Part shown: piece by piece, positions 9,756 through 21,723 of the stretch
Numbering within the stretch: position 1 is the first letter of the stretch
How the letters are laid out: the number at the start of each line of letters is the position of its first letter
From: Gemmatimonas sp.
GTDB taxonomy: Bacteria > Gemmatimonadota > Gemmatimonadetes > Gemmatimonadales > Gemmatimonadaceae
Length of the DNA: 64,000 nucleotides
Assembly (NCBI GenBank): GCA_965279375.1
Contig: OZ257156.1
Coordinates: 5,088,001-5,152,000 of the forward strand
Direction of reading: 5' to 3'
The notes under the pieces: model-generated
Told to the model about the DNA's origin: nothing
Database searches by the model: none
Seen by the model: the letters and a program-made list of their open reading frames with translations, nothing else
Position numbers and translations under genes: made by a program

Positions 9756-9773
9756 CTTCGGTATTTATTCGGT
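9756..9773 (+). promoter_or_regulatory. Direct-repeat box CTTCGGT-ATTTA-TTCGGT upstream of imuA (candidate DNA-damage regulator site)
   Basis: 18 bp before imuA ATG 9792. A 16/18 identical copy lies at 17121-17138. An extra TTCG half-site lies at 9745. Confidence 0.6.
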
Positions 9774-9791
9774 TGTCATCCAATACACCCC

Positions 9792-10991
9792 ATGCCTGCC
9801 GCCGCCCGCCTCTCTGCCACCCCCGCCGTGGACTCTCTCGCCGTCGCCCGCTCGCTCGAGCAGATCCGGGCGCAGATGGACGAGGTGGTCATTGGCAAGC
9901 GTCCGGCAGGACTCCCCATGCCAACGGGCGTCCCGCTGCTCGATGCCGCATTGGGCGGAGGCGTCCCGCGCGGCCGCATCACCGAAGTCGTGGGGATGCG
10001 CGGCGTCGGCAAGACGGCGCTGCTGCGGGAAGTGGTGCGGCGTGTGCTGGCCGCAGGAAGCTGGGTGGCGTGGGTGGATGCACGGCGGACACTGGCGGCT
10101 GCCCCTTGGGCTTCGCTGGGCTCGCGGTTGGTGATGATCCGCCCGCGCGATGCCGCGCGAGGCGCCTGGTGCGCGGATACGCTGCTGCGCAGTGGCGTCT
10201 TTGCGCTGGTGGTGCTGGATGGCGCCCCACCGCTCTCCCGGGTCAACGGCGTACGGCTGGCCCAACTCGCCCGGGAGCGCGACGCGGCGCTGGTCATCGT
10301 CGCCGACGGTACGCAGCCCAGCCGTGTGGGCGGTGCGGTCCGACTCAAGGTGACACCGCAGGCAGCCACGACTGCCCGACGACGATCACCGAGCACAGCC
10401 GAAGCAGCCCCCGGCCCTGCCCCGGGTTTCCTGGTGACCGTCGAAAAAGGTGGTGTCTTTCGTTCCGTCGAGGTGAGCAGTGCAGTCGTCGTGGCGCGTC
10501 GCGTGTGTACGGATCCCGAGATTCCCGATCGGCGCGGGGTGGCGCGAGGAACGCGTCATACCTGGACGCCGCACAGCCACGCCAACGACGCCACCAACAG
10601 CGCCCAGCCCATCACGTGGGGCGGGCTGGGTGCATCCGTCGAGAACGTCCGCAGCGCCGACGCCGTCCTCGCCACCGGCCACGCAGCTGGCGCTGCCGTT
10701 CCTGACGCCGACGCCAGCGAGCGACGCCGGCGCGACTGGAGCAGCAGCAAGGGGCGGAGGCGCGCCGCCGAGTCCGGGTATGGGAGACGGAGTCGCCGTG
10801 AGGCCGCCCGGGATCGGATCGGGGCCGCTCTCGCGACTCAAAGTGGGCAGTCGCATGGCAGCAACGGAACGCCGCGCCTCGGCCGCGACGGTGGGAGTCG
10901 AACACTCGGCGGCGGAGCCGCGCACGGCGTTCCAGCCGCCGGTACCCATGCGGGCGCCGCATTGGGACGCGTTCCCGCGGGCGTTGGCTGA
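9792..10991 (+). CDS. imuA: ImuA-like RecA/SulA-family protein
   Basis: PTGVPLLDAALGGGVPRGRITEVVG, Walker A GVGKT, VAWVD, LLRSGVFALVVLD. Lies upstream of imuB. Confidence 0.8.
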   Translation: MPAAARLSATPAVDSLAVARSLEQIRAQMDEVVIGKRPAGLPMPTGVPLLDAALGGGVPRGRITEVVGMRGVGKTALLREVVRRVLAAGSWVAWVDARRTLAAAPWASLGSRLVMIRPRDAARGAWCADTLLRSGVFALVVLDGAPPLSRVNGVRLAQLARERDAALVIVADGTQPSRVGGAVRLKVTPQAATTARRRSPSTAEAAPGPAPGFLVTVEKGGVFRSVEVSSAVVVARRVCTDPEIPDRRGVARGTRHTWTPHSHANDATNSAQPITWGGLGASVENVRSADAVLATGHAAGAAVPDADASERRRRDWSSSKGRRRAAESGYGRRSRREAARDRIGAALATQSGQSHGSNGTPRLGRDGGSRTLGGGAAHGVPAAGTHAGAALGRVPAGVG

Positions 10992-12819
10992 CGGCCAGCG
11001 GCTGCGCGTGGTGTCGCTGGCCGCCGGGCGCGCCGGTGTGCGGGCGGGGATGAGTGTGCCGGAGGCGCGCGCCTGTTGCGCCGCGCTCGAGGTGCGGGCG
11101 TGGGATGATGACGTGATGGCCGACGCGATCCTCGCGACGACGACGGCGTTGCTGGCGGCCAGTCCGCAGGTGACACCGGTTGCGGGGGCGCCGGGCATGT
11201 GGTGGGTGGGGGCGACCGGGTTTGGCGGATTGGGGGGCGAGGAGACGCTGGCGCGCACGCTCCTGGCGATCGCGCAGACGGTGCATCCGGACGCGCGGGT
11301 GGCCATCGCCGACTCGTGTGTGGCGGCGCGTGCCGCGACCTGGGCGCCCAAGCCATCGACAGCGCGTCCGCCTGCGACCCCCTATGCGAATCACCACGTG
11401 AAACAGAATGGGCGGGTGGCGGAGGCGGACCCACTGGCGTTGCCGGCAGGAGTGACGCTGATCCCGACGGGGTGCTGTGCGACGTATCTGGGGCCGGCGC
11501 CGCTGGGACTCGTGCCGATGGAGGAGGAGTTGCGCGACGCCCTCAAGGCGCTGGGGCTGCGCACGGTCGGGGCGTTGGCGGCCCTCGAGCCGGGCGATGT
11601 GGAGCGGCGCTGGGGCGCGGACGGGCTGACGGCGTGGCGGTTGTCGCGGGGCGAGGATCCCCGTCGGCCGGGATTGGTGCGAGTGGAAGCGGCGCGCAGT
11701 GCGAGCGTGGAGTTGCCGGCCCCGGCGGAGGCCGCGGCACCGGTGCTGTTCGTGGCGCGCGCGCTGCTGGAGCGGTTGGTGCGCGAGTTGGTGGAGGACG
11801 GCCGCGCCGCCGCGTCGGTGGCGATCACGCTGGTGCTGGACGCGGGTCGATCGTGGCCGCTGGAGGAGGAAGAAACGGCGCAGGAGAGCAGGCCGGAGGG
11901 CGCGCTGCGGGCGGACGCGCTGCGGGCGGACGTGCTGCGGGCGGACGTGCTACGCGACCATCCAGGAGCGACACCGTCCGAGCATTCCGCAAAGCAGCAT
12001 AGCCCGCTGCCTAACGCGCTGCCTAACCCACGACCGAGCGCGCTACATAACCCGCTGCATAACCCGTCGAGCTATCTCAACGCTGGGTTAGATGGGGTGC
12101 GCCCACCGGCACCGTCGCCCGATCGCCTGCAGCTGCTGGCGATTCCTCATCGCACGATCACGCGCGAGATCCGTCCGGCGCGGCCGATTGCGCGGCTGGA
12201 GCCGTTGTTCGATCAGTGTCGGTCGTTGTTGGAGCAGTGGGTGATTCCGGCGCCGGTGATCGGGGTGACGTTGAGCATTCCGGCCACCGCACCACTCGCG
12301 GCCGATCAGGGCGATCTACTGATCCCGTCGTGGCGTGACGCCGCGATGAACGCCGATGCGGTGTTCACGCGACTCCGCGCAGTGCTCGACCCGGAAAACA
12401 CGGGCGATATCGTGGTGCATCCCGTCGCCGGCGATGCGCACCGGCCGGAGGAAGCGGGGCGTTGGGCGCGTGCGGACGCGATGGAGTTGGGCGTAGCGAA
12501 CACCGCAGACGTGAAGAGTGCGGAGGCGAAAAGCGCAGAGGCGAAGACGGCCGGCGTGCTACGGTTGTTCGATGCGCCGGAGTCGGTGGAGGTGGAGGAG
12601 GCGTCGGGGATGCCGGACGCGTGCTGGTGGCGTGGGCGTCGGCTGAGCTTCAGCGCAGTGGATGGCCCCGAGCGACTGAGCGGCGATTGGTGGCGCACCG
12701 ATGCGTTCGCCCGCGATTACTGGCGCTGCACGGTGGCCAGCGAGGGGGAGTTGCTGCTGTATCGCGATGCGGTGCCCGGCCGCGCCCCGCGCTGGTTTGT
12801 GCAGGGGTGGTACGACTGA
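10480..12819 (+). CDS. imuB: ImuB, inactive Y-family polymerase scaffold
   Basis: N-terminal RVACVRIPRFP, AGVRAGMSVPEARA, LGLRTVGALA, and classic C-terminal GPERLSGDWW...ARDYWR...WFVQGWYD. GTG start overlaps imuA. Confidence 0.85.
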   Translation: MQSSWRVACVRIPRFPIGAGWREERVIPGRRTATPTTPPTAPSPSRGAGWVHPSRTSAAPTPSSPPATQLALPFLTPTPASDAGATGAAARGGGAPPSPGMGDGVAVRPPGIGSGPLSRLKVGSRMAATERRASAATVGVEHSAAEPRTAFQPPVPMRAPHWDAFPRALADGQRLRVVSLAAGRAGVRAGMSVPEARACCAALEVRAWDDDVMADAILATTTALLAASPQVTPVAGAPGMWWVGATGFGGLGGEETLARTLLAIAQTVHPDARVAIADSCVAARAATWAPKPSTARPPATPYANHHVKQNGRVAEADPLALPAGVTLIPTGCCATYLGPAPLGLVPMEEELRDALKALGLRTVGALAALEPGDVERRWGADGLTAWRLSRGEDPRRPGLVRVEAARSASVELPAPAEAAAPVLFVARALLERLVRELVEDGRAAASVAITLVLDAGRSWPLEEEETAQESRPEGALRADALRADVLRADVLRDHPGATPSEHSAKQHSPLPNALPNPRPSALHNPLHNPSSYLNAGLDGVRPPAPSPDRLQLLAIPHRTITREIRPARPIARLEPLFDQCRSLLEQWVIPAPVIGVTLSIPATAPLAADQGDLLIPSWRDAAMNADAVFTRLRAVLDPENTGDIVVHPVAGDAHRPEEAGRWARADAMELGVANTADVKSAEAKSAEAKTAGVLRLFDAPESVEVEEASGMPDACWWRGRRLSFSAVDGPERLSGDWWRTDAFARDYWRCTVASEGELLLYRDAVPGRAPRWFVQGWYD

Positions 12820-12845
12820 GATGGCGAGGAAACCGCGTGATGAGT

Positions 12846-13079
12846 AACCGGTCACCGCCAACGCCGTTCGCTCCACTGATCTCCCGCCACTCACCACCCG
12901 AGACCCGCGACAGGGTGGTGTCGGGTTGGCGGTCCTCGATCCCGCCTGAACTGAGCGAAAAACTCTGAACCGGGGACTGGCCACTGTACCCTGCCGCCGC
13001 GCTGACACTCCTCTGTTCCGGGTCGCGAGTGGTGAGTGGTCGGTCTTGAGTGGAGCGGACTGCGTCGTGAGTGACCGGC
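12846..13079 (+). repeat. ~220-bp self-complementary dispersed element, copy 1 (MITE/REP-like or structured RNA)
   Basis: Arms GCCGTTCGCTCCACT...AGTGGAGCG(G)AC. About 90% identical to copy 2 by manual count. Confidence 0.9.
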
Positions 13080-13106
13080 AACTGCAGTGCGTCTGACCAG
13101 ACAGGG

Positions 13107-13730: not shown

Positions 13731-15524
13731 CTACGGCGCCTGCCCCATCCCGCGCCCGCGACCATCCAGCACTATGTGCCGCCCCGTCGCCGACGACCGC
13801 AGCGCCGGCGCCGAAGCAATCTCGGCAGAGACCGAGATCAATTCCCCGCGCAGACTGCGCACATGCAGATCGCGGCCGGTGAGTCCGCGCATGACGACGA
13901 ATGGTGTTCTCAACCGCGTGGTGTCCTTGGCGGTCGCAGGTTGCCCAGGCCGCGGCGCCGCGTAGAGCAGCACCATCACCGGCTCGCCCGACTTCGAATC
14001 CACCTGCACCCGCGCACTCGGCGTCATCGGTCGTGCCGGCAACGACGACATTTCGGCGAGGGTGAGCACGCCACGCGTCCCGCGCGATGTCAGCGTCAGC
14101 TCAGTTCCGAACACCGCGCGCATGTCGAACACGACGCTGTCCGCGCTCTGGAACGTCAGCCCGCCCGAAGTGAGATCGACCGCCAGCGCAAACGGCGTGC
14201 GGATGCGCATCGTGTCCGTGCGAACGATCGGTGTCTCACCGCGCAGCACGACACGCGCCGAGTCGTTCAGGATGACGAACACGTCGGTCACATACCCGTT
14301 GGGAGTCGAGACCGAGACCGTACCCGTGCGAGGCACACGCGCGAGGAGTGCCGCTGAGCGCGAGGGCGACGACGCGGCCGGTGTCGCAACCGGCGGCCCC
14401 GCCGGAGACCCGGTCACCACCTGCGGCGGCGCCGGCATCGCGACCGCGAGCGACACCACCCCACACGCGCCCACACCAAGCAGCGCCGAGTACCAGACAC
14501 GAGGACGAGAAGATGGCGTGGTCATGGCAAGAATTCTCCGGGTGAGATGTGCGCGCGATGACTCCAGCGACACCAGCGCAACGTGTGCCCAACGAGGACG
14601 CGCAGCTGATCGACCGGCACGCTCGCCAACCAACAGCAACAGCGAGGCGTAGCGACGCACATCCGGCTCCGCGCGCAGCACGCGCGCATCGCAATCGAGC
14701 TCGATCGCCGCACGCAACCGTCGCGTCATCCACCACGCCGCGAGGTTCCATGGCATCAGCGCGAGCAGCAGTGCCGAATACAGCTGAAGCGCGGGATCGC
14801 GCGCCGCGAGATGCTCCCATTCGTGCTGCAGCACGAGTGCACGCATCGATGGTTCGAGCTCGAGCGCCCACTGGGGCAAGACAATCCGCGGACGGATGAT
14901 GCCGGTCGCGGCGGGGCCGAGGCTCGGCGTGAGGATCACCTCGACCGACACGTCACCAAGCGCGCGATCGTCACGTGCACTGTCGAGCGTAGTGCCGAAC
15001 GTGGTGTCGCACGAGGTCTCCCACGACACGCCCAACGCTGCATCGCGCCCGTGATCGATCGTCGCATGGGTCGCATCAGTGACACGCGCCGACCGCCGCA
15101 TCGCGAGTAGCAGTGCGGAGAGCATGAGCACCGACAGCGCGAGCCATGCGATGAGCAGAGCGCGATCGAATGGCGACGCCCACTCAGCCAACGCCGCAAA
15201 GCGATCAGCCACCACGTCGCGCCAGGCGAACGGCAGGGCTGTTCCATCCGTGTTGCTGTCTACGATGGACGGCTGCGCGACGGTCTCCAGCGCGTTCGGC
15301 TGCTGTACGATCGTCATCGTCACATCAACGGGCAGCGTCGAAGGCGAGGCCACACGCGATGAGAGCACAGCGAATATCGGCAGCACTGCCGCGCTGCACA
15401 GCAACACGAGCCACAGGCCGCGTGTTGGCAGCTTTCGCTGCAGCAGGATCGGCTCGATCGCGAGCCCTACCAGCACGAACAACAGCGTGATGAGCAGCGA
15501 GAACCCCATCCACGCGGCGATCAC
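13731..15524 (-). CDS. BlaR1/MecR1-type M56 metallopeptidase sensor with a non-PBP C-terminal region
   Basis: TM segments, GPAATGIIRPRIVLP, HEWEH (HExxH), ELDCDARVL, YASLLL. Overlaps the blaI-like stop. Confidence 0.88.
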   Translation of the reverse strand: MIAAWMGFSLLITLLFVLVGLAIEPILLQRKLPTRGLWLVLLCSAAVLPIFAVLSSRVASPSTLPVDVTMTIVQQPNALETVAQPSIVDSNTDGTALPFAWRDVVADRFAALAEWASPFDRALLIAWLALSVLMLSALLLAMRRSARVTDATHATIDHGRDAALGVSWETSCDTTFGTTLDSARDDRALGDVSVEVILTPSLGPAATGIIRPRIVLPQWALELEPSMRALVLQHEWEHLAARDPALQLYSALLLALMPWNLAAWWMTRRLRAAIELDCDARVLRAEPDVRRYASLLLLVGERAGRSAARPRWAHVALVSLESSRAHLTRRILAMTTPSSRPRVWYSALLGVGACGVVSLAVAMPAPPQVVTGSPAGPPVATPAASSPSRSAALLARVPRTGTVSVSTPNGYVTDVFVILNDSARVVLRGETPIVRTDTMRIRTPFALAVDLTSGGLTFQSADSVVFDMRAVFGTELTLTSRGTRGVLTLAEMSSLPARPMTPSARVQVDSKSGEPVMVLLYAAPRPGQPATAKDTTRLRTPFVVMRGLTGRDLHVRSLRGELISVSAEIASAPALRSSATGRHIVLDGRGRGMGQAP

Positions 15525-15934
15525 TTGCGTCTCCGTGCGTTCGCTTTACCCGCCGTGGGCGTGGTGTCAGCAGTCGCCAGTCGCGCATCGAGCAGCTGCT
15601 GCAGCGCGCGCACATCGTCGGTGGACAACGACGCATCCGTCACGAGATGCGTCAGCAGATCGAGCGGAGATCCGCGGAACAGCTTCTGCGTCAGTCGCGC
15701 CACCTGACTGCCACGCACGCGCTCTTCCTGCACGAGCGCGTGATAACGATGCAGCCGCCCTTCCTCGGCGTGCCCGACCAGCTCCTTCGCTTCGAGGTTG
15801 CGCAGGATGGTGAGCACCGTGTTGTAGGCGAGCTCCGCCGGCAACTGTTCGCGTACATCGGCCACCGTTCCGGGGCCATGTCGCCACAACACACCCAGTA
15901 CGTCGAGCTCGCGTTCGCCGAGCGATACGTCCAC
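15521..15934 (-). CDS. BlaI/MecI/CopY-family repressor
   Basis: LGERELDVLGVLW...LAYNTVLTILRNLEAKELV winged helix, paired with the M56 peptidase. Confidence 0.92.
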   Translation of the reverse strand: MDVSLGERELDVLGVLWRHGPGTVADVREQLPAELAYNTVLTILRNLEAKELVGHAEEGRLHRYHALVQEERVRGSQVARLTQKLFRGSPLDLLTHLVTDASLSTDDVRALQQLLDARLATADTTPTAGKANARRRK

Positions 15935-15942
15935 GGAACGGC

Positions 15943-16008
15943 TCCTGAACTATGAGGTTAGTTCAGGATAGGACGCAGACGAAGTTCTGTCAACTATCCG
16001 ATTAGTTG
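15943..16008. promoter_or_regulatory. Two palindromic operators AACTA-N6-TAGTT upstream of the blaI-like gene
   Basis: TCCTGAACTA-tgaggt-TAGTTCAGGA (15943-15968, perfect 10-bp arms) and CAACTA-tccgat-TAGTTG (15991-16008). Confidence 0.75.
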
Positions 16009-16039
16009 TTGGTCTTGGTCGGCAAGAGTTCCGGTGAGC

Positions 16040-16266
16040 AACCGCTCACCGCCAACGCCGTTCGCTCCACTGATCTCCCGCCACTCACCACCCGTAGCCC
16101 GAAACAGGGTTGTGTCGGGTTGGCGGTCCGCGACCCCGCCTGAGCTGAGTGAAAAACTCTGAACCGGGGACTGGCGACCGCGCCCTGCCGCCGCTCTGAC
16201 ACTGCTCCGTTCCGAGTCGCGAGTGGTGGGTGGTCGGTCTTGAGTGGAGCGAACGGCGTGACCGGT
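16040..16266 (+). repeat. ~220-bp self-complementary dispersed element, copy 2
   Basis: Same orientation as copy 1. Arms ACGCCGTTCGCTCCACT / AGTGGAGCGAACGGCGT. Confidence 0.9.
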
Positions 16267-16326
16267 CACCGATGGAACCCGATGGAGCGAACAGCATGGG
16301 GAGTTACCGCTGCTCTCGGCGATGCA

Positions 16327-17100
16327 TCAACGCGTGGGCGAGACCTTGCCGGTATCCATCGGTACTACCTTCGCCGATACAATCGAATCCAGCGCCGGAA
16401 ACCACGAGCGCAGATACGCATTGCCCTTCGATGCGAGCCGTCCCTGGTTGACCGTCTCGCCGTACTCGCTGTTCAACTTGTCGACGACCTCCATCCCCTC
16501 AATCACGCGACCGAACGGCGCGAAGTCGCGTCCGTCCAGCTTCTCGGCGTTGTCCACGAGGTTGAGAAAAAACTGGTTCGTGCGCGAGTTGGGCTCGGGC
16601 GTCGTCGCAAACACGATCGTTCCACGCGCGTTGCTCGTCTTGCGCGGCTCATCGGCAATCGTGCGCTCACGCCACACGTCGTTCACCTCCGGATCGCCGT
16701 GCATGCCGAACTGCGCCACGAATCCCGGCACCACACGAAAGAAGCGCGTGCCGCTGAAGTAGTTGGCCTGCACCATCTCGTAAAAACGATCCGCGCCCAA
16801 CGGCGACAACGACCGCTGCGCTTCGATGGTGAACACACCGGCACTCGTGGTGAACGCCACGCGATACACATCCGGACTGCGCACCGGTGTCTCCGCCGGC
16901 CCCTTGAGCAACGGATTGACGCTGTCCACCGCAGCACCCGTGGCCGCAGCGCTCGCTGAGGCACCGCTCGCAGAGCGATCGCCCGACCCACCACCACACG
17001 CGCTCAGCAACAACGCCGCCACGAGACACACCGCCGGCGACAGCGACAGTGGTAACGACACTAGCGCGACAGCGCGCGGATGATGGGCTCTGCATGTCAT
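16327..17100 (-). CDS. Cyclophilin-type peptidyl-prolyl isomerase, lipoprotein
   Basis: LLLSAC lipobox, FFRVVPGFVAQFG, NARGTIVFA, QFFLNL.DN, FAPFGRVIEGMEVVD. Confidence 0.9.
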   Translation of the reverse strand: MTCRAHHPRAVALVSLPLSLSPAVCLVAALLLSACGGGSGDRSASGASASAAATGAAVDSVNPLLKGPAETPVRSPDVYRVAFTTSAGVFTIEAQRSLSPLGADRFYEMVQANYFSGTRFFRVVPGFVAQFGMHGDPEVNDVWRERTIADEPRKTSNARGTIVFATTPEPNSRTNQFFLNLVDNAEKLDGRDFAPFGRVIEGMEVVDKLNSEYGETVNQGRLASKGNAYLRSWFPALDSIVSAKVVPMDTGKVSPTR

Positions 17101-17120
17101 GACGCGCGCTCTCCCCTCTG

Positions 17121-17138
17121 CTTCGGTGTATATTCGGT
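17121..17138 (+). promoter_or_regulatory. Second copy of the direct-repeat box, CTTCGGT-GTATA-TTCGGT
   Basis: 16/18 match to 9756-9773 in the same orientation. Lies 2 bp beyond the pyp stop and about 450 bp upstream of dnaE2. Confidence 0.6.
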
Positions 17139-17140
17139 AT

Positions 17141-17563
17141 TCATGATGTCGCCAGCGGCTGCCCCTGCTCATCCGAGATCAGCACCCACACGGTGCGCGT
17201 CCGCTTGGAGTAGAGCAGTCGAACGGTCACGTCGCGTGGGGATTGCTTGAACGCAAAGTGAAATCGGAACGACGTATCCAGCGACTCATGAATCACCCCT
17301 TCCTTGAAGCGCCCGTAAAACTCCTGGACCTTCGTGCACGGGGCGATCTCGGTGAAGAACTGCTTCCCGATCGCGTCTTCCTTGCGCAACGACGCGAGTT
17401 TCGACTCGACGGCGTTGTAATTCAGGATGCGTCCGGACCGATCCAACTGGATCATCCCGTAGGGCAGCCGATCGAGCTCCTCGGGGGCCATGGTGTCGGC
17501 CGCTTCGAGCACTTCGTTGACGGTGTGCTGGTGCCGCAGCTGCGGACTGATCGAGTTGGGCAT
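17141..17563 (-). CDS. pyp: Photoactive yellow protein (PYP) homologue
   Basis: LDRLPYGMIQLDRSGRILNYNAVES...IGKQFFTEIAPCTKVQEFYGRFKEGV aligns by eye with Halorhodospira PYP. Residues equivalent to Tyr42, Glu46 and Cys69 are retained. About 140 aa. Confidence 0.85.
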   Translation of the reverse strand: MPNSISPQLRHQHTVNEVLEAADTMAPEELDRLPYGMIQLDRSGRILNYNAVESKLASLRKEDAIGKQFFTEIAPCTKVQEFYGRFKEGVIHESLDTSFRFHFAFKQSPRDVTVRLLYSKRTRTVWVLISDEQGQPLATS

Positions 17564-17589
17564 CACACCACCGCATGGTCGGAGAGAGA

Positions 17590-20500
17590 ATGACGTCTCC
17601 GACCAATATCGACGGTCCGTACGTCGAATTGCACTGTCACTCCGCGCTCTCGCTCCTCGATGGCGCCTCGCTCCCCGAAGCGCTGGTCGCGCGCGCGGCC
17701 GAACTTGGCTATCCCGCGCTCGCACTCACCGACCATGATGAACTGGGCGGCATCGTCCGTTTCGGCACCGCCTGTGAAGCCACGGGCATCAACGGCATAC
17801 TCGGCGCCGAGCTCACGGTACTCGTTCCGGACCGACAGAACGCCAAGGACGCACGTCCCACACATCTCGTGCTGCTCGCTGAAACGCGCGAAGGCTACGG
17901 CAACATCTCGTCGCTCATCACGCGCGCACGCATGGACATGCCACGCGGCATGCCCTCGGTGCCGTGGTCGCTGGTGGCGTCGCACGCCCGTGGCGTGACG
18001 GCACTCTCCGGGTGCCCGCGGGGCTGGATTCCGCAACTCCTCGCCGAAGGACGCGACGACGATGCGTGGACGGCAGCCTGCGCCATGCGCGACGCGTTCG
18101 ACAACCATCTGGCCATCGAATGCTGGGACCACCGCCTCCCCGAAGAGCGCGCCCTCGTCCGCAAGCTGCGGCCACTCTCGGTTAAACTCGGCGTTCCCTG
18201 GGTGGTCACCAACGACGTGCACTACGCCAAGCCAGATGGCCGCATCGTGCACGATGTGCTGCGTTCACTGCGCTACGAACGCACGCTCGACGAGATGGGC
18301 ACCCGCCTGCGCCCCAATGCCGAATGGGCGCTCAAGGCACCGTCGCTCGTGCTCAAGCGCTGGCGCGGCGCGGAAGAAGGCGTGCACGCCACACGTGACA
18401 TCGCCGACCGGTGCGCGTTCCGCCTGCAGCAGCTCAAGCCCACACTGCCGGCGTTTCCGTTACCGCCCGGCATCACCGCCGACGAATACCTCGCGCGGCT
18501 GGTGGAACAGGGATCGCACGAACGATGGGGACGCGCGCGCACGCCAAAGCACGACGCACAACTCGCGCACGAACTGGCGATGATCGCCAAGCTCAAGCTC
18601 GCGGGCTTCTTCCTCATCGTCTGGGACATCGTGCGCTTCTCGCGGCGCGAAGGGATTCTCTGTCAGGGGCGCGGCTCTGCCGCCAACTCGGCCGTCTGCT
18701 ACTGCCTGGGCATCACGGCAGTAGACCCCATCCGCATGGAGCTGCTCTTCGAGCGATTCCTGAGTGAAGAGCGCACGGAGGCGCCGGACATCGATATCGA
18801 CTTCGCGCATCGCGACCGCGAGCGCGTGCTGCAGTACGTGTACGATCGCTACGGACGTGAGCACGCGGCGATGGTGTGCGAACAGATCACCTGGCGTGGC
18901 CGCAGTGCGGTGCGCGATGCCGCGCGTGTTCTGGGCTTTTCGGTGGAGCAAGGCGACATGCTGAGCGCCATGAGCGACCGCTTCAGCGCCAAGGCGACTG
19001 CGGCCGCACTACGCACCGGCAATGACTCACCCAAGAATTCCACGGCCGAGCAGTTAGGGCAGCAGATGATCGGCGGGACGGAGGCGACCACGAAGGCGCG
19101 TGTGGTGCGTGCCGAAGCGCGCAAAGTGGCGGCGAGTACGGCGACCAAGAGCGCCATCGTCGGCGCGCCGTTGGACGAACGGTCGAGTGTGCGTCCCCCC
19201 GAAGGATCACGCGGGAAGGCCACAAAGCAGGCGATGCTTGCCAAGACGGATTCCGCGCTGATTCCCGTGCTCAATTCTGCGCCCAATCCCGTGCTCAATC
19301 CTGTACTGCTCCCCAATGCACAGCGTCGTCCGGGGCAATCGCTCAACGAGCGCGATGCGACGTGGGCCGAGCGGTTGGATGAGCGCGCGGTGGCCAAGAT
19401 CGCAGCCGATGCGGCGCACAACATGGGGCCGTTGGCCAAGGGTGGTGATCGTCCATCAGCTGAGCGCCACTCGGCGGAGGCGATTCGCAACGGTGCGCCG
19501 TCGCATGAAGAGCGCCGCAACCCCACCACGGCCACGCGCGACAGTGCGGCGGGTGAGTCACTGCTCACGCGCGCCGGACTCGACGCCAACGACCCGCGCG
19601 TGCGTGTGCTGGCCGATGTCGTGGACGGACTGCATCAGCTGCCGAGGCATCGTTCCATTCACGTGGGTGGCTTCGTGCTCACCGAGCAGCCGCTGGGGTC
19701 TGTGGTGCCCATTGAACCTGCGTCGATGCCGGGGCGCACGGTGATTCAGTGGGAGAAGGATGATCTCGATCCTGTGGGGTTGGTGAAGATCGATTTGCTG
19801 GGACTCGGCATGCTTACGGTGGTGCAGGATTGTCTGCTATACATCAGGCACACGCGTGGCGTGCACATCGACCTCGGGCAGCTCGACATGACCGATCAGG
19901 CCGTGTACGACGTGATGTGTGCAGCGGATACCGTGGGGCTCTTTCAGATCGAGAGTCGCGCGCAGATGAACACGCTGCCGCGTCTCAAGCCGCGCTGCTT
20001 TTACGATCTGGTGGTGGAGGTTGCGCTCATTCGTCCGGGGCCCATTCAAGGCGAGATGGTGCATCCGTATCTGCGGCGTCGCGCGGGGCTCGAGCCGATC
20101 ACGTATCCGCATCCGTCACTGGAGCCGGTGCTCAAGCGCACGATGGGCATTCCGCTCTTTCAGGAGCAGGGGATGCAGGTGGCGATTGCGGCCGCGGGGT
20201 TCACACCGGGGCAGGCCGACGTGCTGCGGCGTGCGATGGGGCACAAGCGCTCACACGAGCGCATGGCCGCGATCTGCGAGGAGCTGATCGAGGGGATGAA
20301 GCGCAACGGCATCGAGGAGGAGATTGCGCGACGGATCTACAACCAGATCAACGCCTTTGCCGACTACGGTTTTCCGGAGAGTCATGCGGCGAGCTTCGCG
20401 CTGATCGTGTACGCGACGGCGTACCTGCGCCACTACTACGCGCCCGAATACGCCGCAGCGATACTCAACGCGCAGCCGATGGGCTTCTACTCGCCGGGCA

Positions 20501-21402
20501 CGTTGGTGGAAGATGCCAAGCGGCACGGCGTGGAGGTGCGTCCGATCGATCTTACGCGTTCGTCGTGGGATCATGTACTGGAGCTGGCCGACGGCCGCGT
20601 GCTCGTGCCCAACGATGGCACGGTCCAGTGGGGCGCACGGTGCCTGCCCTCGCCAGTCACGGGAAAGGATCGTGTGGCGGTACGTCTTGGCGTGCGACTC
20701 ATTCGTGGCTTGGGCGCGAAGGCGCGACGCGCGCTCGAAGCGGCGTTGGCGAAGGGGCCGTTCACGAGCGTGGAGGACGCGGTCGCGCGGGTGAATCTGG
20801 ATCGAGCGGCATGGCGACGACTGGCCGAGGCCGGCGCGTTCGATACGATGTTCGCGCATGAACCCGCCGATCGGCGTCGGCGTGTTGCACTCTGGGAAGT
20901 GCTGGCCGCGACGCGAGGACCACAGCTCCCGCTCGCACCGATGCGCCCACAACCGGTACCGGCGCAACTCCCTGCACTCGCGCCGGTTGAGCTCACCGAG
21001 GCGGACTATCGCATGACGGGGTTGTCGCTGGCCGGCCATCCGGTGTCGCATCTGCGCACGCTGCTCGCACCGAATGGCGTGCTCACGGCACGCGAAGCAC
21101 TCACGTTGGGGCGCGATGGGCAAAAGGTGGCGGTGGCCGGACTGGTGATTTGCCGACAGCGCCCAGGCACGGCCAAGGGGTTCGTTTTTTTGACGCTCGA
21201 AGACGAGACGGGGATGATCAACGTGATCGTCACGCCGGATCGGTTCGAGGAGCACGCGACGACGATTTCGCGGTCACCGCTGCTGCTGATTCGCGGCGTG
21301 CTGCAGGTGGAAGGATTGGTGGTGAATGTGCGGGCGAAGCAGTTCAAGACGCTGACGCTGGGTGCGGGAGAGGAGCACGCGCCGGGGCATAATTTCAGAT
21401 AA
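17590..21402 (+). CDS. dnaE2: Error-prone DNA polymerase III alpha subunit DnaE2 (ImuC)
   Basis: PHP ELHCHS..SLLDG, GRGSAANS, PDIDIDF, KIDLLGLGML, YGFPESHAASFA, OB fold RQRPGTAKGFVFLTLEDETG, terminal GHNFR (SRDFR-like). Purine-rich RBS before ATG 17590; ATG 17575 is the alternative. Confidence 0.96.
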   Translation: MTSPTNIDGPYVELHCHSALSLLDGASLPEALVARAAELGYPALALTDHDELGGIVRFGTACEATGINGILGAELTVLVPDRQNAKDARPTHLVLLAETREGYGNISSLITRARMDMPRGMPSVPWSLVASHARGVTALSGCPRGWIPQLLAEGRDDDAWTAACAMRDAFDNHLAIECWDHRLPEERALVRKLRPLSVKLGVPWVVTNDVHYAKPDGRIVHDVLRSLRYERTLDEMGTRLRPNAEWALKAPSLVLKRWRGAEEGVHATRDIADRCAFRLQQLKPTLPAFPLPPGITADEYLARLVEQGSHERWGRARTPKHDAQLAHELAMIAKLKLAGFFLIVWDIVRFSRREGILCQGRGSAANSAVCYCLGITAVDPIRMELLFERFLSEERTEAPDIDIDFAHRDRERVLQYVYDRYGREHAAMVCEQITWRGRSAVRDAARVLGFSVEQGDMLSAMSDRFSAKATAAALRTGNDSPKNSTAEQLGQQMIGGTEATTKARVVRAEARKVAASTATKSAIVGAPLDERSSVRPPEGSRGKATKQAMLAKTDSALIPVLNSAPNPVLNPVLLPNAQRRPGQSLNERDATWAERLDERAVAKIAADAAHNMGPLAKGGDRPSAERHSAEAIRNGAPSHEERRNPTTATRDSAAGESLLTRAGLDANDPRVRVLADVVDGLHQLPRHRSIHVGGFVLTEQPLGSVVPIEPASMPGRTVIQWEKDDLDPVGLVKIDLLGLGMLTVVQDCLLYIRHTRGVHIDLGQLDMTDQAVYDVMCAADTVGLFQIESRAQMNTLPRLKPRCFYDLVVEVALIRPGPIQGEMVHPYLRRRAGLEPITYPHPSLEPVLKRTMGIPLFQEQGMQVAIAAAGFTPGQADVLRRAMGHKRSHERMAAICEELIEGMKRNGIEEEIARRIYNQINAFADYGFPESHAASFALIVYATAYLRHYYAPEYAAAILNAQPMGFYSPGTLVEDAKRHGVEVRPIDLTRSSWDHVLELADGRVLVPNDGTVQWGARCLPSPVTGKDRVAVRLGVRLIRGLGAKARRALEAALAKGPFTSVEDAVARVNLDRAAWRRLAEAGAFDTMFAHEPADRRRRVALWEVLAATRGPQLPLAPMRPQPVPAQLPALAPVELTEADYRMTGLSLAGHPVSHLRTLLAPNGVLTAREALTLGRDGQKVAVAGLVICRQRPGTAKGFVFLTLEDETGMINVIVTPDRFEEHATTISRSPLLLIRGVLQVEGLVVNVRAKQFKTLTLGAGEEHAPGHNFR

Positions 21403-21419
21403 TGCCTGCCCTTCTTTGG

Positions 21420-21640
21420 TAACCGGTCACGCCGTTCGCTCCACTCAAGACCGGCCACCCACCACTCGCGACCCGGAACAGAGGAGTGTCAGAGCGGCGG
21501 CAGCACACAGTTGCCAGTGCTCGGTTCAGAGTTTTTCACTCAGATCAGGCGGGGTCGAGGACCGCCAACCCGACACATCTCTGTCGCGGGTTTCGGGTGG
21601 TGAGTGGTGGGAGATCAGTGGAGCGAACAGCGTGACCGGT
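21420..21640 (-). repeat. ~220-bp self-complementary dispersed element, copy 3 (inverted)
   Basis: Reverse complement matches copies 1 and 2. Terminal arms ACCGGTCACGCCGTTCGCTCCACT / AGTGGAGCGAACAGCGTGACCGGT (23/24 complementary). Confidence 0.9.
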
Positions 21641-21723
21641 AACCGAACGGCGAACTGCGTGACCGGTGACCAACTGCGAACTGCCAGCCCGGAAACCCAT
21701 AACGAAACGCACGGCCCAATCGG

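Follow-up and report, generated by a model that had tools for sequence, protein, structure and literature searches.

A photoactive yellow protein gene head-to-head with the error-prone polymerase gene dnaE2 in Gemmatimonadaceae, with a candidate LexA operator

The imuA, imuB and dnaE2 genes constitute a LexA-regulated mutagenesis cassette. In the stretch of Gemmatimonas sp. DNA analysed here (64,000 nucleotides of contig OZ257156.1, positions 5,088,001 to 5,152,000; hereafter the window), the same gene set, order and upstream operator are found. Unlike the known cassette, the window has a photoreceptor gene in antisense before dnaE2, namely pyp, encoding a homologue of photoactive yellow protein (PYP), and its candidate operator is a direct repeat, TTCGG-N6-TTCGG. 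An oppositely oriented gene within the span that one promoter must transcribe is likewise a feature of the noncontiguous operon, or excludon, menE-menC-MW1733-ytkD-MW1731 of S. aureus (available text of the review PMC7154746). In contrast to that operon, co-transcription and reciprocal control are only inferred at the present locus, and 41 of 65 linked loci are plainly divergent.

PYPs have been connected with DNA repair before. A table in PMC6273459 assigns the PYPs of Rp. palustris and Desulfonema to DNA repair by the same neighbour-based reasoning, and the part of that source available names no translesion polymerase or SOS operator. In Cryptococcus, the White Collar complex controls the UV endonuclease UVE1 (available text of PMC3764193), so that a blue-light receptor is linked to a UvsE-family enzyme, as in the pyp-uvsE loci considered below. 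The Cryptococcus receptor is a fungal LOV transcription factor, whereas PYP has no DNA-binding domain. The abbreviation DPL in the table of PYP contexts presumably denotes photolyase.

The PYP contexts reported in the available text of two surveys (Xing et al. 2022, PMC9664959; Dohmen et al. 2025, PMC12826048) are kinases, MCPs and GGDEF/EAL proteins, and both state the output of most single-domain PYPs as a gap. A search of the two main texts by term gave no mention of polymerase or DNA repair. In the portion of Data Set S3 of PMC9664959 available, row 57 lists a clade-A PYP of G. phototrophica with the neighbour 'error-prone DNA polymerase' and row 118 a Longimicrobium PYP adjoining UvsE. 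The 2025 analysis covers predicted operons, going by its available text, and a head-to-head pair would therefore be missed. No described PYP-dnaE2 or PYP-UvsE system was found in the literature searched, which lay mostly outside subscription papers. The parts are known; what appears to be undescribed is how they are combined, together with the candidate SOS box and the recurrence of PYP in a UV-repair context.

The pyp-dnaE2 pair and its conservation

The pair consists of the following elements.

17141 to 17563, minus strand: pyp, a PYP homologue of 140 aa with Gln at the Met100 position (open reading frame, profile, alignment and model)
17564 to 17589, no strand: head-to-head spacer of 26 bp between pyp and dnaE2, containing the dnaE2 ribosome-binding site
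17590 to 21402, plus strand: dnaE2 (ImuC), error-prone DNA polymerase of 1270 aa (open reading frame, PRK05672 profile)

A preliminary description of this DNA had placed a PYP homologue of about 140 aa, with its chromophore residues kept, 26 bp from dnaE2 on the opposite strand. Profile, alignment and a model with TM 0.87 agree on the homologue, and the gap is correct for the dnaE2 ATG at 17590, which has GGAG 5 nt upstream; with an alternative in-frame ATG at 17575 it would be only 11 bp. The dnaE2 product scores 1229 bits against the PRK05672 cut-off of 939 and is a DnaE2-type polymerase by this measure.

The pyp product carries the NYNAVES and IAPCT motifs. Its Y49, E53 and C76 align with Y42, E46 and C69 of the H. 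halophila protein (best PDB match, E 7.6e-24) and so satisfy the family definition, Cys69 plus Tyr42 and Glu46, given in the available text of PMC9664959. The family-consensus Ser47, Leu49, Ala50 and Leu52 are also kept, and the equivalents of Cys69 and Glu46 are unchanged across 44 orthologues. Eight of the nine residues of the p-coumarate pocket, as listed in the part of PMC12826048 available, are identical, V66 being replaced by I. With 108 bits against a cut-off of 143 the window PYP falls outside the narrower equivalog model TIGR02373, as do the Gemmatimonas PYPs in the available 2022 table (PMC9664959). An AlphaFold model (pLDDT 81) matches PYP structures (1gsv) with TM 0.87 and rmsd 1.7, and ranks 1-39 of a structure search with it were all PYP or PYP derivatives; the product is accordingly modelled with the PAS/PYP fold. 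Within the genus, purifying selection acts on pyp (pN 0.10, pS 0.58). Mutants of PYP at Met100 have an altered, slow photocycle, and by analogy the Gln at this position suggests a slow photocycle for the window PYP. The window PYP is likely a blue/UV-A light sensor that is part of a UV-damage programme. A conserved antisense open reading frame over pyp was considered and rejected, as several orthologues have stop codons in it. A third PYP-like clade in the genus (L023-L032) has Cys69 replaced by Ser.

The pairing was surveyed in the best 80 GTDB orthologue loci, of which 77 were assessable, three ending at a contig edge. pyp stands head-to-head with dnaE2 in 65 of the 77 (one of them by way of its second pyp copy), and the pairing extends over at least 8 genera. 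The linkage is real, conserved and in excess of chance. Restriction to the source strain had been set beforehand as a finding that would tell against a functional module, and the pairing is not so restricted. In 20 same-genus loci the pyp-dnaE2 junction was kept in 19, the imuB-pyp junction in three and other window neighbours in at most one. Orthologues of 62-95% identity occur in 21 of 36 same-genus genomes (two partial). At E 1e-30, pyp was found in 32 of 250 genomes of the family Gemmatimonadaceae, which with the source genome amounts to 14 of 77 genera, and in the phylum sample the close orthologue is restricted to this family, bar one short contig (L325). Tallies over the 250 family genomes or the phylum sample may include three genomes flagged as unpublished (G067, G094, G579); no locus-level count depends on them. 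Loci outside the genus mostly have imuA-imuB followed by an antisense pyp and then dnaE2. The stops of imuB and pyp are at most 30 nt apart in 9 of 19 loci examined, which leaves no room for a terminator. In L064 and L066 two divergent pyp copies lie between imuB and dnaE2, and in L154 (G035) a pyp shortened to about its first 58 codons still precedes dnaE2, as does the operator.

The candidate LexA operator and the route to dnaE2

The repeat TTCGG-N6-TTCGG was first seen in the spacers, directly before the dnaE2 start of most same-genus relatives. The window has two copies at the cassette.

9757 to 9772, plus strand: candidate LexA operator upstream of imuA, a TTCGG-N6-TTCGG match
17122 to 17137, plus strand: candidate LexA operator that encloses a -10-like hexamer (TATATT); 3 bp separate its end from the pyp stop

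Three of the 13 exact matches in the source genome are those at lexA (G000:C1:3875989), imuA and the pyp 3′ end. In all 29 genomes tested, the 250 bp upstream of lexA contain an exact match, against 0 of 232 control windows (the 30 loci L156-L185 less one, whose genome is unpublished), and the operator is found upstream of the dnaE2 cassette in 34 of 38 pyp-free loci. A matrix scan added recA (one mismatch), ydjM, a UvrC-like gene and a DinB-family gene; since the matrix was trained on loci that include the window, its two best matches are circular, and at the lower threshold shuffled sequences also yielded 4 to 6 matches. The candidate operator is shared with lexA and recA, and on sequence the cassette likely belongs to the LexA regulon; TTCGG-N6-TTCGG is a candidate LexA box of the Gemmatimonadaceae. 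It was not found as a LexA box in the literature searched, the available text of PMC8565304 being without a match. Many family genomes have two lexA-like genes.

The operator lies between the two starts in 41 of the 65 linked loci and at the pyp 3′ end in four, while 20 have no internal operator; its distance from the pyp stop is exactly 3 bp in both the window and L040. The preliminary description had held that a promoter must overlap the opposite gene, and the candidate operator for dnaE2 at the pyp 3′ end bears this out. In the window and in 24 of the 65 loci (the 20 and the four), an opposite-strand gene stands between the promoter and the downstream gene. In those two layouts, the known operators would reach dnaE2 only by antisense transcription through pyp; a promoter inside pyp, missed by the scan, may change this picture. 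The window operator is situated within the 40-bp spacer between pyp and a cyclophilin gene (17101-17140), so that bound LexA could also block read-through from pyp to cyclophilin.

These results suggest the following mechanism. LexA would likely repress the imuA-imuB-dnaE2 cassette through TTCGG-N6-TTCGG and be cleaved upon DNA damage. Transcripts started at the operator next to the pyp stop would then cross all of pyp in antisense before entering dnaE2, and in relatives without an internal operator read-through from imuB would give the same antisense passage. Less pyp would be expressed once dnaE2 is induced, and transcription of pyp would in turn keep basal dnaE2 low, in the manner of an excludon or noncontiguous operon. 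dnaE2 would probably be triggered by damage and not by light. The effect of light would pass via the PYP protein to some partner, with p-coumarate scavenged and the AMP-binding ligase encoded beside a second pyp put to use. We give a probability of about 0.5 to this reading of an SOS-controlled mutasome with an interlocked pyp, with the PYP as light sensor of a UV-stress programme, dnaE2 triggered by damage and the two transcripts opposing each other.

The sole control element found on dnaE2 is an ordinary SOS-type operator. A scan of 16900-17900 for sigma-70 promoters and terminators found none, and the pyp promoter was not located. CarH-type repeats at the window pyp promoter scored 7/12 and were found in 0 of 78 dnaE2-linked loci, without enrichment. 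No PpsR-type palindrome was found in the window pyp promoter region, nor was it enriched at dnaE2-linked pyp, and neither of the two B12-binding matches in the source genome is a MerR-B12 (CarH-type) protein. Transcriptional control of dnaE2 by light, as the preliminary description had proposed, is thus not supported: only the SOS-type operator was found, CarH and PpsR sites were not found at pyp, and no tyrosine ammonia-lyase (TAL) is encoded. In one freshwater metatranscriptome (X1) a single 375-nt contig with 23 differences, of unknown strand and small share, covers 17135-17509; it shows at most a relative's pyp in an RNA library, and the missing dnaE2 cover is uninformative. A possible hairpin covering the ribosome-binding site of dnaE2 (about 17576-17605) was rejected, the whole-region z of -0.54 being indistinguishable from shuffles.

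PYPs beside UV-repair genes and competing explanations

A separate PYP clade (about 47-57% identity) is present in one family of another order, in 39 of 68 genomes. It is encoded directly upstream of, and co-directionally with, the UvdE/UvsE endonuclease gene uvsE in 25 of 30 loci (pyp-uvsE loci L227, L228 and L326-L353). In their promoters, TTGACA often stands between 11-bp TnnACA repeats, the form in which the CarH consensus is given in the available text of PMC9304148. Tandem repeats scoring at least 10/12 were present in 9 of 29 of these promoters vs 1 of 290 shuffles, and one pyp-uvsE genome has a MerR-B12 (CarH-type) gene beside phytoene synthase. A third PYP, whose 5′ end may carry a frameshift, is encoded downstream of a photolyase-like gene. 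The clade beside uvsE and the one beside dnaE2 could not be shown to be sisters, and the UV link therefore looks convergent. Of the light-mutasome coupling put forward in the preliminary description, the connection with UV damage has gained from this second clade tied to uvsE, and the part in which light drives mutagenesis has found no support. In the source genome UvsE was not found, and the photolyase-family match (G000:C1:4512848-4513321, L354) has an internal TGA stop.

A wider proposal, which we consider doubtful, is that Gemmatimonadota have repeatedly recruited PYPs as light gates of UV-damage handling (the dnaE2 mutasome, UvsE, photolyase), with blue/UV-A light setting the capacity for error-prone repair. 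If this is true, these single-domain PYPs would gain their first known output, and mutagenesis would in this instance be tuned by light; should DnaE2 be gated by light, the supply of mutations in bacteria common in soil and freshwater would be tuned by sunlight. The two ties to UV-damage genes, each conserved separately, offer a concrete, testable PYP output, and the 2022 table (PMC9664959, as available) lists the dnaE2 neighbour for a cultured Gemmatimonas. By-products are a candidate SOS box of the family and a mutasome operon that may contain an excludon.

Several findings weigh against the interlocked UV-stress reading. The operator position varies among linked loci, and the commonest layout (41/65), with the operator between the starts, needs no antisense read-through and possibly gives the coupling the opposite sign; operators directly before dnaE2 also occur in pyp-free loci. 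pyp is unlinked to dnaE2, and beside unrelated genes, in 12 of 77 loci, and its distribution within genera is patchy. dnaE2 is present in at least 89 of the 250 family genomes plus most of 73 with an insert in the gene (the search at E 1e-250 missed insert-split genes including the window dnaE2, and the count is a lower bound), against 32 of 250 for pyp; pyp being much rarer, the cassette would mostly function without it. Cassettes were pyp-free in 38 of 38 loci of one set and in 19 of 20 of an insert-bearing set. The PYP tree clusters by genus; there was probably one old insertion, inherited vertically with later losses, and the loci are then not independent. As regards UvsE, the clade is mostly Y42F and lacks the sister relationship mentioned above, any TTGACA -35 supplies one repeat alone, related loci are not independent, and a positive control near carH/crt loci found no CarH repeats. 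On the side of the chromophore, the source genome has no TAL, its single aromatic lyase being HutH (above cut-off, in a hut cluster). A lyase with the His-Leu motif, which we take to mark the TAL type, is clustered with the ligase and second PYP in only 5 of 49 hosts.

A competing reading makes pyp a passenger that landed once in a cargo-accepting imuB/dnaE2 junction and was held by a short shared promoter intolerant of insertion, the PYP signalling elsewhere (motility, c-di-GMP). We regard this as a tentative but serious possibility, in keeping with the vertical inheritance pattern of the PYP tree, the frequent loss of pyp, the much other cargo at the junction and the three different operator layouts. 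Moreover, close PYP relatives have MCP, kinase and GGDEF/EAL genes as fusion partners or neighbours, and among 46 long homologues there is no fusion with a repair domain. A passenger does not readily account for the separate clade conserved upstream of uvsE in another order, with CarH-type repeats, or for the third PYP by a photolyase-like gene. In one genus (L066) a second pyp copy is co-directional and directly before dnaE2, and in several species the operator lies within a few bases of the pyp stop; both are also at odds with passive linkage.

Contact between proteins, in which lit PYP would bind DnaE2, ImuA or ImuB and switch translesion synthesis on or off, is unlikely. It would fit the unusually conserved PYP surface (80% mean column identity across genera, including a basic RLxYS[KR]RTR hairpin) and the fact that within the genus pyp stays with dnaE2, not imuB; unlinked PYP orthologues are, however, equally conserved, and the same 46 long homologues provide no fusion to a repair domain. 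The contact with DnaE2 raised in the preliminary description had a single sequence hint, an insert of about 190 aa in DnaE2 (residues about 474-663, window 19012-19566) with short conserved motifs (a GTEATT helix, ERDATW, EERRNPTT), and this proved not to be PYP-specific. The GTEATT insert is present in 73 of 250 family genomes, mostly without a window-type PYP, and some pyp-linked DnaE2s are without it. As a docking site it was rejected, 19 of 20 insert-bearing loci fetched being without pyp; the initial correlation came from a sample biased against insert-bearing dnaE2 genes.

Chromophore supply and neighbouring features

The source genome has a second PYP elsewhere (G000:C1:2884994-2888031; L002, L194), beside an AMP-binding ligase and without a TAL-type lyase. 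The AMP-binding enzyme is far under the TIGR02372 cut-off, and its homologues cluster with TAL-type lyases elsewhere. A pCL-like ligase is found in 13 of 250 family genomes, 12 of which carry a window-type PYP vs a base rate of 32/250 (kin not independent). It is very improbable that the protein is no photoreceptor in most hosts, being apo or sensing p-coumaroyl-CoA or phenolics via Cys69 and so reporting plant compounds. The histidine ammonia-lyase as the only one encoded in the source genome, the single lyase in most of 49 PYP hosts and the failure to find a pCL-like gene in 20 of 32 PYP-positive family genomes (E 1e-45) point in that direction. Against it stand the pocket with 8 of 9 residues identical and the UV-repair neighbours, which fit light sensing; besides, TAL is found in only 5% of pyp operons and p-coumarate uptake is suggested for PYPs generally (available text of PMC12826048). 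By analogy, most window-type PYP hosts would need scavenged p-coumarate. At L363 (G000:C1:3092863-3096057) a B12-binding gene lies beside a multi-PAS gene and another open reading frame (domains from profile). We take these to be PpaA/AerR-like, PpsR-like and BchF-like, respectively, and the neighbourhood suggests a phototrophic host.

The remaining features of the neighbourhood are as follows.

9792 to 10991, plus strand: imuA-like RecA-fold gene (NF033429, 59 bits, cut-off 150; RecA Pfam above its cut-off)
10480 to 12819, plus strand: imuB-like Y-family polymerase homologue (profile; start uncertain)
13731 to 17100, minus strand: lineage-specific cargo between imuB and pyp, namely an M56 peptidase (BlaR-like), a BlaI-like repressor and a cyclophilin (profile matches)

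The imuA-imuB...dnaE2 neighbourhood named in the preliminary description is present: the imuA-like and imuB-like genes lie 4.3 kb upstream of pyp-dnaE2, with the blaR/blaI-like and cyclophilin genes between. As the ImuA and ImuB partners upstream of dnaE2, they have weak profile scores; their order is conserved and they are often contiguous in relatives, and imuB is contiguous with dnaE2 in many pyp-free relatives. The cyclophilin starts at about 17100, 40 bp past the pyp stop. A cyclophilin neighbour was found in 0 of 53 related loci, and blaR and blaI together only in L035. Three fold-back repeats of about 225 bp, 88-90% alike, at 12841-13083, 16035-16272 and 21415-21647, flank the cargo genes and dnaE2.

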